This document shows positions 8,428-14,528 of a stretch of 64,000 bases of DNA, piece after piece; positions within the stretch are counted from its first letter, which is position 1; every line of letters starts with the position of its first letter. A program made the translations under genes and the position numbers. This stretch comes from a bacterium. Its GTDB lineage: Bacteria; Actinomycetota; Acidimicrobiia; Spongiisociales; UBA5794. Where the stretch lies: positions 36,379-100,378 of the forward strand of contig JAAETI010000377.1 of the NCBI GenBank assembly GCA_024228555.1. Direction: 5' to 3'. Below the pieces are notes generated by a model that saw only the letters and a program-made list of their open reading frames with translations, was not told the origin of the DNA and searched no databases.

Positions 8428-8610
8428 ATATTCCCGTGAGACGTCAGGCAGCGCAAATTGCGCTCTTCTGTAGGCACGTGCTCAGCAATTGGGCCACAGA
8501 AGCCTCGCCCTTCACGGTTGGTGGCTGGGTCGAATGGGCCTCATCGTCAAGGTCTGCCTAAGCTCGGCATATCGGTCGGCTGGGCTCGACCGTTCAGAAG
8601 GAGGAGAGGG

Positions 8611-9378
8611 ATGAAGAGATTCAATTACTTGTTTGCCGCGTTGGTCGCTTTCGCCTTGATTGCCACAGCATGTGGCGGCGACGATGACACCAGCGAACTG
8701 GGGCTCGTCAGTGCCGACACTTTGACGGTTTGTTCGGAGATTCCGTATGAGCCTTTCGAGTTTGAGGCCGATGGTGAATACACCGGGTTTGATATCGATG
8801 TCATCAACGCCATCGCTGATGAGCTTGGTCTCGAGCCGAACGTTGTCAGCACCGGTTTCACGGCGATTACCAGCGGTAGCGCTATGGCTGCGAACCAGTG
8901 CGATATTGCGGCATCGGCGATCACGATCACCGCGGACCGGGAAGAGGCCATCGACTTCGCCGACCCGTATTTCGATGCCGATCAGTCATTGCTGGTCAAG
9001 ACCGACTCGGGCTATGCATCGCTGGACGACCTTGTCGGGAAGAACCTTGGAGTCCAATCCGGCACAACGGGCGAGGAATACGCAACTGCGAACAACCCAG
9101 GCGCCGAGATTGTGTCCTATGAGAACGGTGGAGACCTCTTCCTCGCTCTTGAAGCCGGCGCCATCGACGGCATCCTGCAGGACCTGCCGGTGAACGGTTA
9201 CCGCACTATTGCGGACTCGAGTGTCGCCGTTGTTGCCACCTATCCAACGGGTGAGCAGTACGGTTTTGCCGTGGCTGAAGAAGGCAAAGAGGCGTTGCTC
9301 GAAGCAGTCAACGATGCCCTCGCGACGCTGCGTGACAATGGTAAGTACGACGAGATCCACGAGAAGTGGTTCGGCTAA
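8611..9378 (+). CDS. Polar amino-acid ABC transporter substrate-binding lipoprotein
   Basis: GAAGGAGGAG SD before ATG at 8611. Lipobox LIATACGG. PBP type-2 family-3 motifs (GFDIDV..., LQDLPVNGY). Confidence 0.8.
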   Translation: MKRFNYLFAALVAFALIATACGGDDDTSELGLVSADTLTVCSEIPYEPFEFEADGEYTGFDIDVINAIADELGLEPNVVSTGFTAITSGSAMAANQCDIAASAITITADREEAIDFADPYFDADQSLLVKTDSGYASLDDLVGKNLGVQSGTTGEEYATANNPGAEIVSYENGGDLFLALEAGAIDGILQDLPVNGYRTIADSSVAVVATYPTGEQYGFAVAEEGKEALLEAVNDALATLRDNGKYDEIHEKWFG

Positions 9379-9456
9379 GCCACAATTGCGAACGAGCAAA
9401 GCATTGTCTGAGGGAGACCCACTAGGGTCTCCCTCAGCTGCGATTGGTGGATTGAT

Positions 9457-10245
9457 ATGAAGAGAACCACACGTCAGAAACTGATCCGTTATGCGATGTA
9501 CGGGGTGCTGGTCCTGGTGGTCGCAGCATTCAGTTTCGTTGCGGACTGGGACAAGATCGCAACTTCGTTCTTTAATGTCGAAATCGCAAGGGACATGTTC
9601 CCCGAAGTCCTGACCACCGCGGCCCGCAACACAATCGTCTACACCTTCCTGGCGTTCGTGCTCGGCCTGATACTTGCCCTGATCTTGGCGCTGATGAAGC
9701 TGTCGTCGATCAGGCTCTATCGGTGGCTGGCGATCGCCTACATCGAACTGTTCCGCGGGCTCCCGGCTCTGGTGACAATCATCTTCGTCGCCTTTGCGTT
9801 GCCGATCGCCTTCGATGGGTTCAATGTTCCCGGAGGGATTCTCGGACAGGGAAGCCTTGGGCTTGGGATCGTTGCCGGTGCCTATATGGCGGAGACCATC
9901 CGAGCGGGGATTCTGGCTGTTCCCAAGGGACAGATGGAGGCGGCAAGATCTCTCGGCATGAGTTGGGGTACCGCGATGACATACATCATCCTTCCCCAAG
10001 CGTTTCGAATCATTATTCCGCCGCTTACCAACGAACTCGTGCTCCTGATCAAGGACACGTCGCTGTTCTTCGTGCTGGGCACGACGGTTGCCTCGAAGGA
10101 GTTGACCAAGTTCGGGCGAGACTTGATGACCGCAAAGTTCAATGGAACGCCGCTCACAGTCGTTGCACTTGTGTACCTGGCGATAACCCTGCCGCTCACA
10201 TATCTTGTGTCGCGGCTCGAGAAGAAGACGGCAGCCGCACGATGA
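9457..10245 (+). CDS. Amino-acid ABC transporter permease (HisM/GlnP type)
   Basis: EAA-loop region [33 protein letters not shown]. Confidence 0.85.
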
Positions 10246-11000
10246 CGATGCAACCAGATCCCACAGCCCCTCCCATCCAGCTTCTCGACCTGCATAAGAG
10301 CTTTGGCGAACTCGAGGTCTTGCGCGGTATCGACTTCAAGGTGGAGGTCGGCGAGGTCGTATGCCTAATTGGTCCTTCGGGATCGGGTAAATCAACCCTG
10401 CTGCGGTGCGTCAACAAACTCGAAGAGCCGACCGCGGGTCGCATCCTCATCGAAGGAATCGACATAACCGACCCAGAGACCGATGTTGATGCGGTCCGCA
10501 CCCGTATTGGAATGGTGTTCCAACAGTTCAACCTGTTCCCGCACCTCAGTGTGTTGCGGAACCTGCGAATTGCGCAGCGAAAGGTGCTGGGCCGGGACAC
10601 CGAAGAGGCGACCCGCATTGCTTCTGAGATGCTCACTCGAGTGGGACTCATCGACAAGATGGACGAGCACCCGGCGCGCCTGTCGGGTGGTCAACAACAG
10701 CGTGTTGCCATCGCCCGCGCCCTCTGCATGAACCCCGACATGATGCTGTTCGATGAGCCAACCAGCGCCCTCGATCCCGAATTGATCGGCGAAGTCCTCG
10801 ACGTGATGCGGGAACTTGCCGACGATGGCATGACGATGGTCGTAGTGACTCACGAGATGGCTTTTGCCCAGCAAGTTGCGGACCGAGTCATCTTCATGGA
10901 CGGCGGCGTAATTGTCGAGGATGGCCCACCCAGCCAAGTCCTCGTCAACCCCATCCACGAGCGCACGAAGAAGTTCCTGAGAGCCATCGAGGTCGAGTAG
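10242..11000 (+). CDS. Amino-acid ABC transporter ATP-binding protein
   Basis: Walker [10 protein letters not shown], signature [15 protein letters not shown], Walker [16 protein letters not shown] overlap with the permease stop. The ORF-track start at 9723 is rejected. Confidence 0.9.
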
Positions 11001-11172: not shown

Positions 11173-12126
11173 CTACCCCAACGTTCCCTCCATATCAGCG
11201 ATGTCGGCAACCGATACGTTGCCGCCGCACAGAAGTAGTACGACGTGGTCGTCGGGGCCAAAGCGATCGGCGACTGATTCGGCGGCGGTGAGGGTGCAAG
11301 ATGCGGCGAGCTCTGGCACGACTTTGGTGCGTTCCATGAGTGTTCGCAGCGACCGATAGGCGGCTTGATCCGATACGACGATCGGTGGCTGCTCCAATTC
11401 TGTGGCGAGGTCGATTGCGGTCTGGGCGGCATAGGGAGATCCAAGGGTCTTGGCGCGTGACGTCGGGGTCATGTGGATTTGCTCACCGGTGAGCAGCGAT
11501 TTGGAGAGCACGTCGGCTCCCTCGGTCTCCACTGCCCACATGCGAGCCTCCGGACGCAGTCCTTTGATCGCTGTGACGACCCCAGAGATGAGGCCACCCC
11601 CACCCACGCTCACAAACACGTCGGTCACATCGGGGACGTTTTCGACGATTTCGAGTCCGACGGTCCCGTTGCCGGCCATCATGTCGGGGTGGTCGAACGG
11701 ATGCATCAAGGTGCGTCCTCTTTCGGCCATCTTCTCTGCGGCGGCAAACAGCGTGTCGATGGTTGGCTCGTACTCGATGACCGCTCCGTAGCCCCTGGTG
11801 GCTACCACGTAGTTTGCAGGAGTTGTCTGTGGCATCAGCACCAAGGTGTCGACTCCCAAGGTCTGTCCCGCATAGGCCATGCCTTGCGCAAAGTTCCCGC
11901 CGCTCACCCCGACGACGCCGGCTGCCCTCTGCTGATCGGTCAGCGACAGCATTGCATTGAAGGCACCCCGTGGTTTGAACGATCCAGTCTTCTGGAACAG
12001 CTCATACTTCAAGTAGATGTTGGTCCCCAGCATCCGGCTCAGCGTTTCGCTGCGCTCCAGCGGGGTCCGGCGCACGTACCGGGTGATCCGGATCCGCGCC
12101 TCGTTGATGTCGGTCAGGTTGAGCAT
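11173..12126 (-). CDS. PLP-dependent threonine/serine dehydratase (threonine ammonia-lyase family)
   Basis: PLP lysine motif GSFKPRGA and a Gly-rich loop GVSGGNFAQG. Start moved to MLNLTDINEA (ATG at 12126). Confidence 0.75.
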   Translation of the reverse strand: MLNLTDINEARIRITRYVRRTPLERSETLSRMLGTNIYLKYELFQKTGSFKPRGAFNAMLSLTDQQRAAGVVGVSGGNFAQGMAYAGQTLGVDTLVLMPQTTPANYVVATRGYGAVIEYEPTIDTLFAAAEKMAERGRTLMHPFDHPDMMAGNGTVGLEIVENVPDVTDVFVSVGGGGLISGVVTAIKGLRPEARMWAVETEGADVLSKSLLTGEQIHMTPTSRAKTLGSPYAAQTAIDLATELEQPPIVVSDQAAYRSLRTLMERTKVVPELAASCTLTAAESVADRFGPDDHVVLLLCGGNVSVADIADMEGTLG

Positions 12127-12229
12127 GACTGCCTTGATGGGGCTGCTGATGTTACGCCGTTTCCGAGGCGGACATGGGGGTAGAGGAGGACGGCCGTTTC
12201 TTGTCACACCCATGAGATATGTTGGTCCT

Positions 12230-12367
12230 ATGAAGAAGTCACCAGCCAAAATCATCAGCATCGAAGAACTGCTCGACGTGGCGGGATTCGACTACACCAC
12301 AGTCGAACGCTGCCCACACCCGGCATGCGAGATCTGTACGGAAGGTGTCTTGGCGGTTGCTGCCTAG
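12230..12367 (+). CDS. Small hypothetical Cys-containing protein (45 aa; C-x4-C-x2-C)
   Basis: MKKSPAKIISIEELLDVAGFDYTTVERCPHPACEICTEGVLAVAA. No good SD; lies between the dehydratase and the DsbA-like remnant. Confidence 0.2.
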   Translation: MKKSPAKIISIEELLDVAGFDYTTVERCPHPACEICTEGVLAVAA

Positions 12368-12445
12368 ACAGTTCGAGTACTCACATGGAACCTTCGGCTC
12401 CGTGATGGTGCTGCCTCGGAAGACAGCCCTGCCCAGGGACCAGTG

Positions 12446-13089
12446 ATGCCCCAAACCAGAAGTCATCTGCGTCGGCGACCCAATGTGCTCATGGTGTTGG
12501 GGTATTGCGCAGGCCATACATCGGATCGCTGATCGTGACGATGTTGAACTCAGGGTGATCGTTGGCGGACTCCGACCGGGACCGAACGCACAACCTCTTG
12601 ACGATCAGCTGAGACAGCAATTGGCCCGTCACTGGGACAAAGTCGCAAGCGTTTCGGGCCAGCCGTTCGACAAGGCAGCTCTGGAGCGCCCCGCTTGGGT
12701 GTATGACACAGAGCTCACCGCCAACGCGGTGACCACGATGCGCCGCCTGTCACCCTTCGATACGGTGACCCGCTTCACTCACTTGCAGACGTCGTTCTAT
12801 GCGGACACTGTCGACATCACCGATCAATACACAGGCTTGATTGCAGGATATGACGTCGATCCCGGACGGTTCATGGCCGAGCTGGAATCCGACGAGGCCA
12901 AGACTTTCGCTTGGTAGGAGTTCGCTGAGGCCCGCGAACTCGGGGTTGCCGGCCCCCACGGTCCTGCTCCGGATCGATGACAAGGTCCCTGTTCTGGCCA
13001 GCACTTGCTCGATTGAGGGGATCTGCCGACCGGCAACAGAATCCTCAAGCCTCCCCATTCACTTTCCGATTCGATTCAGGTGCAAGTAA
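12446..13089 (+). pseudogene. DsbA/FrnE-like thiol-disulfide oxidoreductase, disrupted (two homopolymer frameshifts and an in-frame TAG)
   Basis: ATG at 12446 followed by CCCC. With CCC it would read MPKPEVICVGDPMCSWCWG, a canonical DsbA N-terminus with CxxC. In-frame TAG at 12915. The conserved C-terminus (EFAEARELGVAG | PTVLLRIDDKVPVLAS) is split across frames at the C-run near 12950. Confidence 0.55.
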
Positions 13090-13124
13090 CGTACTGGTAA
13101 TCGCTGACAGGAGGGTGCGTTAAC

Positions 13125-14528
13125 GTGGCTCGGAGACGTTCACGGCGGCGCAAGAGTTCATATTCAGAGAGCGACGAGCAGACTTCGTCTGACATTGCGG
13201 CAGACGAGCTGTCACCGCGAGCCCGCAGGCTCGTCGAGAGCGGTGTGATTGACCTCGAAACCATTTCCGGCTCCGGCCCCGACGGCAGCGTCACCAGCGG
13301 TGACATCTTGCACGCTGCTCGCGTGATGGAGATGGAGCAATCTGTTCCCAGAATTGAGCGCACCAGCCAAGCCGTCTCTGGGCACGGGGAATCTGATGAC
13401 CCGGCAGCGGACGATGATCTCGAAGCTGCTGCACCCGCAGAGTCAGGAAGCCTTGTCGATGTCCCGGAACTAGTCACTCCAAGTGCCGATTCTGGAACAT
13501 CTACGACTGCACAGGTCGGTGGCGAGCCGATCACGGTGGCCCTCGATCCATGGGACGACTACAACGGATCGTCAGAGGGTCTCTCGGAGGGTGCTCTTCC
13601 CGGTGCCGAGCAATCCTGGGGCGAGGCCGAGGCCAACATCGCCGCGATCGCCGACGAAGCGGCCGCCAACGATGGTGAATCTGATGACGCGGATGCAGAT
13701 GAATCCGCAGAGGAGACAGCCTATGTTGATGCAGATCGGCCGGAGCAGCCTGCGGCGGTCACCTCCGATGAGGCAGTTGATGGCGAGCCCGTGGAAATTG
13801 TGGCTGAGCCACCCGTGGAGCCCGAACCAGCCGCAGTAGACGGGACTCCATTGATCGACTCTGTCCCCGAGGCCGGCGAGGGTGGCGCGGACGAGGCATC
13901 AGATAGGTCAATTGCCGATCTCGTTGCTGCCGCCAATGAGGCCATCGCAACGACATCCACACCCGAAATACCGTCACCCGAGGTATCCATCCCCGAGGGC
14001 GGTACAACACGACACGAAAGCGACGTCGCATCCCCAGTGGTTGCCGAATCGCAGGGAGAGGTAATGATGGACTTCGGTACTCTCGAACTGGTTGATCCGG
14101 ACAGTGTATGGGCTGAGGGTGTCGAGGACTTTGCTCCTTGGTTCCTGGCACATTCAGAGCAATTGGGTGACGTTCTCGGTTTCGATGCCGGGCTTTCTGA
14201 CGCCCGCCAATTCACGACGAAGAGCGCAACCGGTGTGCTGGGTCGCGACGACGGCGGCGAAGACGTGGTCGTCGTTTCCTCAAAGAACGCTACTGCCGAC
14301 GACTCCGATCTGGGTCGGGCACTGGGTATGGCAGCTTCCTCAGGAGCCGGCTCAGTCGCCTTGGTTTCTGCCGCCCTCAATGAGGATCAGTTGAAGGCTC
14401 TTGCCTGGCTGAACAACCAGACCAGGAGCGGGGTCAAGTGGTACGGTATCGAGATGCAGGTCGTCAGGATTGCAGACTCACCGGCAGCAATGATGTTCAA
14501 GCTGGTGGCGTCGCCACCGCAGGACTGA
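13125..14528 (+). CDS. Hypothetical acidic protein: N-terminal E3-binding (peripheral-subunit-binding)-like domain, a long D/E/A-rich linker, and a C-terminal degenerate PD-(D/E)xK / NucS(DUF91)-like domain
   Basis: LSPRARRLVESGVIDLETISGSGPDGSVTSGDILHAA resembles PSBD. C-terminal GVLGRDDGGEDVVVVSSK...LGRALGMAAS...VKWYGIEMQVV resembles NucS-like endonuclease fold motifs, with E replaced by S in the ExK position. Confidence 0.45.
   Translation: MARRRSRRRKSSYSESDEQTSSDIAADELSPRARRLVESGVIDLETISGSGPDGSVTSGDILHAARVMEMEQSVPRIERTSQAVSGHGESDDPAADDDLEAAAPAESGSLVDVPELVTPSADSGTSTTAQVGGEPITVALDPWDDYNGSSEGLSEGALPGAEQSWGEAEANIAAIADEAAANDGESDDADADESAEETAYVDADRPEQPAAVTSDEAVDGEPVEIVAEPPVEPEPAAVDGTPLIDSVPEAGEGGADEASDRSIADLVAAANEAIATTSTPEIPSPEVSIPEGGTTRHESDVASPVVAESQGEVMMDFGTLELVDPDSVWAEGVEDFAPWFLAHSEQLGDVLGFDAGLSDARQFTTKSATGVLGRDDGGEDVVVVSSKNATADDSDLGRALGMAASSGAGSVALVSAALNEDQLKALAWLNNQTRSGVKWYGIEMQVVRIADSPAAMMFKLVASPPQD

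Follow-up and report, generated by a model that had tools for sequence, protein, structure and literature searches.

Positions 12446-13029 of the window (the whole 64-kb stretch of DNA analysed, from the MAG with locus tag GY926) very probably hold a real, fairly young unitary pseudogene of a DsbA-like gene, one that would no longer give a product. Alignment of its DNA and conceptual protein to intact syntenic orthologues shows that this remnant derives from a gene of 223 codons, from which it is separated by six lesions, and all six are common to the window and the same locus of a second MAG.

Reading frames of the remnant

The remnant comprises the following features:

12446..13029, forward strand: whole putative pseudogene, from the original ATG to the former stop position, delimited by DNA alignment to the intact loci L002 and L003 and by protein alignment
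12446..12452, forward strand: original start ATG plus CCCC, the site of lesion 1, from frame translation
12483..12917, forward strand: leftover 144-aa ORF, from the Met just before CSWC to the TAG, from the ORF listing
12486..12497, forward strand: codons of the CSWC (CxxC) active site, unbroken, with C14, S15, W16 and C17 invariant in 25 aligned sequences

In the window sequence, a TGA at 12444-12446 overlaps the ATG at 12446-12448, CCCC follows at 12449-12452, and a TAG at 12915-12917 comes directly after ...KTFAW; an earlier reading of this DNA, made from its letters and ORF translations (hereafter the sequence-only reading), had reported all three, and the sequence and its translations bear it out. 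The frame opened by ATG 12446 closes after 28 codons. The same reading had proposed that CCC in place of CCCC would restore a DsbA-type N-terminus, and three-frame translation agrees, since taking one C out gives MPKPEVICVGDPMCSWCWG. When the codons of the homologous frame were checked, no ATG, GTG or TTG occurred from TGA 12444 up to ATG 12483; the ORF listing likewise has ATG 12483 as the first usable in-frame start, at the CxxC motif as had been claimed, where it is the Met of DPMCSWC and gives a 144-aa product opening MCSWCWG. Past GGC 12950-12952, the homologous reading resumes one frame over (…PTVLLRIDDKV…). Stitched across its frames, the translation has 78% amino-acid identity to the intact 223-aa orthologue P0002 over aligned residues, which points to homology far beyond chance.

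Six lesions relative to intact orthologues

Lesions were called at the nucleotide level, in a four-way DNA alignment of the window, its counterpart in the second MAG (L001) and the intact L002 and L003:

Lesion 1, 12449-12452, forward strand: +1 nt within the first two codons (window ATG-CCCC-AAA, L001 ATG-TCCC-AAA, intact ATG-CAC-AAG)
Lesion 2, junction 12825/12826, forward strand: 6-bp in-frame deletion, with loss of the two residues that precede a conserved Y-P and that 24 of 24 aligned homologues have
Lesion 3, 12915-12917, forward strand: in-frame TAG, which is CAT (His) in L002 and L003 DNA; Gln (P0003), Glu or other residues are known here from protein sequences only
Lesion 4, junction 12952/12953, forward strand: 2-bp deletion (intact GGG-TTT-CCC-ACC, encoding G-F-P-T; window GG--CCCCC, L001 GG--CACCC)
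Lesion 5, junction 13000/13001, forward strand: net 81-bp (27-codon) deletion, which takes out ...RGYASLEHFDNVLAHWVEGRQPDSASIG... and with it the conserved R-G-Y motif as well as the last helix
Lesion 6, 13027-13029, forward strand: loss of the stop codon (TGA in L002 and L003) to CGA

Across these indels the remnant has lost 89 bp and gained 1. Lesion 4 deletes a near-invariant Phe and moves the frame within the cis-Pro loop, and through lesions 4 and 5 the cis-Pro loop (G-F-P-T) and the C-terminal beta-beta-alpha are not in one frame with the CxxC motif. The sequence-only reading had counted three lesions; lesions 1, 3 and 4 are indeed real, but the 6-bp deletion, the 81-bp deletion and the stop loss had escaped it. 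It had also traced the second frameshift to a C run near 12950, and a frame change does occur there, at 12952/12953, but its cause is the 2-bp deletion relative to GGG-TTT-CCC and not the length of the run.

Shared lesions and intact neighbours

The second MAG, GCA_024223445.1 (GY788), provides the same-locus region L001, which differs from the window at 55 of 15,318 coding bases, with most genes 99.1-100% identical at the nucleotide level and dS mostly 0.004-0.02; the two are separate assemblies of one species. Both MAGs probably went through a common sequencing and assembly pipeline, and they apparently belong to the same submission batch (GY788, GY926). These data bear directly on the rival explanation that the organism has an unbroken gene, which homopolymer miscalls or strain-mixing errors in the consensus of a draft MAG make look broken. 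The window does come from a MAG, and two of the lesions sit in C runs there. However, at both of these sites the bases of L001 differ (TCCC and CACCC), so that the runs are interrupted, and yet the frameshifts are identical; because the frame is still shifted where the run bases differ, the frameshifts are inherited indels and not run-length miscalls. The second of them is, moreover, a -2 change relative to GGGTTTCCC. Four further lesions, namely the TAG, the 6-bp deletion, the 81-bp deletion and the stop loss, are not of the homopolymer type, a point that had been made earlier for the TAG and that holds for it as for the other three. Finally, conserved residues have been substituted in the remnant as well.

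As a control, the proteins of 21 genes that flank the locus in L002 were compared with the window by tblastn. Nineteen had a detectable counterpart, and each of these aligned in one piece and one frame, without a break, at 73-96% amino-acid identity; the DsbA-like gene alone broke, its alignment ending at residue 171, across a stop codon. Because these 19 neighbours are uninterrupted and long ORFs fill the window at high coding density, the assembly is not generally error-ridden. Taken with six lesions recurring in a second MAG, these results leave an artefact with next to no probability: the homopolymer-length errors of a draft assembly that the sequence-only reading had offered as one option are contradicted, and the genuine decay towards which it leaned is borne out.

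Evolutionarily, the comparison with sister genomes places the broken state on one branch. The locus in L001 is broken identically, whereas L002 (JGI metagenome 3300059814) and L003 (Logan SRR21610157) carry intact P0002 at the same site and in the gene order of the window, that is, a PALP enzyme (PLP-dependent, opposite strand), a 45-aa Cys-rich ORF, the DsbA-like gene and an E3_binding protein gene. The same four-gene order, with the DsbA-like gene again intact, occurs in L004, an Acidimicrobiaceae MAG whose 61% amino-acid identity is the best among the 80 loci with a DsbA-like gene listed in a scan of genome contigs. Intactness is thus the ancestral condition, and the window copy is orthologous to these genes, whose nearest named relatives in protein and genome-contig searches are all Acidimicrobiia. 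A scan of metagenome contigs for further alleles or intermediates did not recover the invariant downstream 23-mer TTCACTTTCCGATTCGATTCAGG.

In several respects the remnant resembles ordinary unitary bacterial pseudogenes, formed from dispensable genes by frameshift, nonsense mutation and deletion: like them it combines several independent disabling mutations, deletion bias and a syntenic orthologue still intact in relatives, and it may share with them a neutral pace of substitution. Genome-wide reductive decay of the Mycobacterium leprae kind was rejected for the window, given its high coding density and uninterrupted neighbouring genes; of the 20 local genes compared, the DsbA-like one alone is broken, which, as far as the window shows, does not fit such decay.

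Ancestral protein and its relatives

A large protein search returned 2422 homologues, the intact ones uniformly 223-225 aa in length. The intact orthologue P0002 is recognized by Pfam models for DSBA (PF01323, 30.0 bits against a gathering cut-off of 25.6) and Thioredoxin_5 (PF13743, 30.1 against 27), whereas the repaired remnant reaches 16.7 bits (E=0.0067) and 16.2 bits, respectively, both under the gathering cut-offs. The DsbA-type protein that the sequence-only reading had expected after repair thus falls short of the DsbA profile in the remnant itself and passes it in the orthologue, and we put the shortfall down to decay, 27 codons being deleted and conserved residues lost; the remnant would be a member of the DsbA family by descent, not as a working protein. 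No NCBIfam model matched P0002, the repaired remnant or the 45-aa ORF.

In the protein alignment, the family is marked by CSWC at residues 14-17, a conserved G-F-P-T loop and, at the very C-terminus, two Cys residues that are nearly invariant, spaced as Cx5C in P0002 and as Cx5C or Cx6C across the alignment. Thirteen residues precede the CxxC motif, forming strand beta1 (MHKPEVIYVGDPMC), and the ancestral 223-aa protein, without room for a signal peptide, was presumably cytoplasmic. Functionally, the ancestral product is predicted to have been a DsbA-like thiol-disulfide oxidoreductase with CSWC, a helical insert, a G-F-P-T cis-Pro loop and a C-terminal Cx5C pair.

The matches of P0002 in the PDB are led by 2IN3 (E=7.5e-33, residues 1-205), followed by DsbM (5HFG/5HFI, 1.5e-16), 3KZQ (VP2116, 6e-12) and FrnE (0.0071). 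The best solved relative, 2IN3, is a structural-genomics 'Hypothetical protein' of 216 aa that shares with the orthologue the DPMCSWCWG, GGLRPG, HHW, GQPF, YDTE and GFP motifs, and which we take to represent the CDD 'DsbA_FrnE_like' group cd03025; it is intact and from another organism, its function is not given by its depositors, and the window copy differs from it in being broken in six places. DsbM, described by its depositors as 'cytosolic disulfide reductase DsbM', is cytoplasmic, as the orthologue presumably is, and resembles it in its DsbA-like fold family and G-F-P-T loop, and its CxxC lies at the same position but reads C-G-W-C; its match spans residues 7-189, and it is a more distant relative. 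FrnE of Deinococcus radiodurans (DR_0659), a DsbA-family oxidoreductase of the cytoplasm, carries one CxxC in its N-terminal part and a further Cys pair, CxxxxC, at its extreme C-terminus (PMC8945050), and this C-terminal pair has been proposed to regenerate the active site (PMC8945050). Intact orthologues and FrnE (PDB 5CNW/5CP1, subfamily cd03024) both end in a Cys pair, but the similarity between them is marginal (19 bits), and the CP(W/F)C active site and CxxxxC tail of FrnE (PMC8945050) stand against CSWC and Cx5C or Cx6C in the orthologues. The 'DsbA/FrnE-like' name of the sequence-only reading is thus sound as to the DsbA family, where the orthologue passes Pfam, but less so as to FrnE, which matches at only E=0.007 while 2IN3, DsbM and VP2116 are closer. 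These comparisons assign the gene to a FrnE-like/DsbM-like cytoplasmic DsbA group, outside the FrnE subfamily proper, and 'DsbA/FrnE-like' is acceptable as a loose label.

The leftover 144-aa reading frame

The 144-aa ORF is deposited in GenBank as MCP4965781.1 (GY926_11140, "hypothetical protein"), and the only other member of its 90%-identity cluster is MCP4304841.1 (GY788_08215, GCA_024223445.1), likewise a "hypothetical protein". Its presence in both MAGs, its annotation as a protein, the CSWC unchanged at its residues 2-5 and a low dN/dS against L002 might all be taken as signs of a useful product, whether a truncated 144-aa CxxC protein (MCSWCWG...FAW) or a full-length one made through +1 and -2 frameshifting plus read-through of the TAG. 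Against the former, the ORF has neither beta1 nor anything from the cis-Pro loop on, and would thus form no thioredoxin/DsbA fold (judged against 2IN3 residues 1-205); the lack of a start codon between the TGA and ATG 12483 also speaks against it, as do the two differences between the MAGs inside the ORF, both non-synonymous, and the fact that its 90%-identity cluster has two members only. Against the latter, recoding would require three separate events, after which the 27 deleted codons and the stop would still be missing. The low dN/dS, for its part, is accounted for by recent inactivation on a long branch. A useful product is accordingly a very improbable reading of this ORF. Programmed recoding, pyrrolysine or read-through at the TAG was rejected as a candidate in its own right, as the five other lesions, including the 81-bp deletion, are not recodable.

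The pseudogene, as we read it, would yield no functional product: translation from the original ATG would halt after its 28 codons, and a protein made from the 144-aa ORF would have no strand beta1 and no cis-Pro loop, and would be short of the whole C-terminal half of the thioredoxin fold.

Signals of relaxed constraint and probable timing of the loss

Among 69 alignment columns conserved in at least 90% of 24 homologues, seven are changed or lost in the window copy (Y8C, P22Q, F109R, the Phe of GFPT, the R and G of RGY, and one Leu), compared to 0-1 in six intact homologues. The dN to L002, at 0.140, is the highest of 15 local genes (0.017-0.137 in the others). The dN/dS of the remnant to L002 is 0.097, within the range of its live neighbours, at a dS of about 1 that is saturated, and substitution statistics alone would not single out a pseudogene. 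In relative-rate comparisons, amino-acid changes unique to the window exceeded those of its sister in nine of ten cases, the strongest being 18 versus 5 (chi2 7.35), an excess that is significant with one outgroup only and absent with P0005. Between the two MAGs, the remnant shows 7 differences in 583 bp where 2.1 would be expected from its coding neighbours (Poisson P=0.006, from a small count), and its rate of 0.012, which rests on these 7 differences, is close to the dS of the neighbours (mostly 0.004-0.02).

Since dN/dS is still 0.097 at a dS of about 1, the long branch leading to the window was mostly spent under selection; since both MAGs have every lesion and their neutral divergence is only about 1%, inactivation would precede the split between them. 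The loss would thus be older than the divergence of the two MAG populations yet young compared with the split of their lineage from that of L002; with numbers this small, the timing is approximate. In the scenario we favor, the common ancestor of the GY926 and GY788 MAGs would have lost the function of the gene, leaving the six lesions that both now carry; the gene body would now drift neutrally, while the 95 bp downstream would be kept since the next gene needs them, and the remnant DNA is probably still present because it is young.

How complete this loss is depends on whether an intact allele persists in part of the population or a second copy lies elsewhere, either of which would modify the pseudogene reading and not replace it. 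We consider this rather unlikely, though by no means negligible. The comparison was confined to 64 kb of the genome, a metagenomic consensus hides minor alleles, and closely related lineages have kept the gene; however, tblastn found no second copy within the 64-kb window, none of the best 120 of the 2422 homologues other than the remnant cluster was attributed to the GY788 or GY926 MAGs, and two populations about 0.4% apart share all lesions.

Implications

As an ordinary pseudogene of a known family, this remnant is of small importance beyond annotation hygiene. For the latter, the 'hypothetical protein' records MCP4965781.1 and MCP4304841.1 very likely represent a fragment of a dead DsbA-like gene and are not annotated as a pseudogene. 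More generally, frameshifts in homopolymer runs of MAGs need not be sequencing errors, and a second assembly together with a syntenic orthologue can decide the artefact question without reads. Biologically, it seems that an uncultured lineage, most likely of the class Acidimicrobiia, recently lost one thiol-disulfide oxidoreductase, presumably cytoplasmic, whose gene is retained by close relatives of that lineage; lost here and kept there, the enzyme would therefore be dispensable or redundant in this lineage.

Flanking elements

Three features adjoin the remnant:

12230..12367, forward strand: intact 45-aa ORF, MKKSPAKIISIEELLDVAGFDYTTVERCPHPACEICTEGVLAVAA, with a conserved RCPxxACExC motif, directly upstream of the DsbA-like gene
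13030..13124, forward strand: intergenic stretch of 95 bp between the former stop and GTG 13125 of the next gene
13125-14528, forward strand: E3_binding gene of 467 aa, starting at GTG 13125 and conserved in L001-L004

The 45-aa ORF remains intact despite the dead DsbA-like gene. It has 100% identity to the window in L001, 73% in L002 and L003 and 49% in L004, with a dN/dS of 0.156, and belongs to no Pfam or NCBIfam family. In every locus that has it, the 45-aa ORF immediately precedes the DsbA-like gene, as a syntenic partner in the three closest lineages, and it is absent from the other 79 of the 80 listed loci with a DsbA-like gene. The small protein may be a clade-specific redox partner or substrate. 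It is conceivable, although a long shot, that the two genes form an undescribed redox module of one Acidimicrobiia clade, in which, in this lineage, the small protein either no longer depends on its oxidoreductase or has gained a minimal partner through co-option of the 144-aa remnant; positive support for such a module consists of the conserved adjacency in three lineages only.

Downstream, the 95-bp stretch at 13030-13124 is 90.6% identical to L002, compared to 74.6% for the pseudogene body and about 75-82% for the surrounding coding DNA, and is partly conserved in L004 (TTCCGATTC...GGAGG). It presumably holds the promoter and ribosome-binding region of the E3_binding gene, still under constraint. 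A consensus scan of 12100-13300 found no sigma-70 promoter or terminator consensus, the stretch shows no excess folding energy (z=0.30) and hence no evidence of a structured RNA, and the whole window has no Rfam match; the conserved stretch probably serves the E3_binding gene as a non-canonical promoter or as its 5' leader. The 467-aa protein encoded by that gene has a single domain, E3_binding (peripheral subunit-binding), spanning residues 30-62, and then a long acidic region rich in Ala, Glu, Asp and Pro, with no lipoyl or catalytic acyltransferase domain detected by Pfam or NCBIfam.

Further upstream, the window carries an amino-acid ABC-transporter operon at 8432-11000 (5934-8518 in L001), encoding SBP_bac_3, a permease and an ATPase. 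Its three products are 54%, 74% and 82% identical at the amino-acid level between window and L001, with a dS of 1.5 for the ATPase, while both flanks are >99% identical; to the more distant L002, the window is closer than to L001, at 91%, 96% and 89%. The whole ABC cassette was apparently swapped by recombination in one of the two populations.
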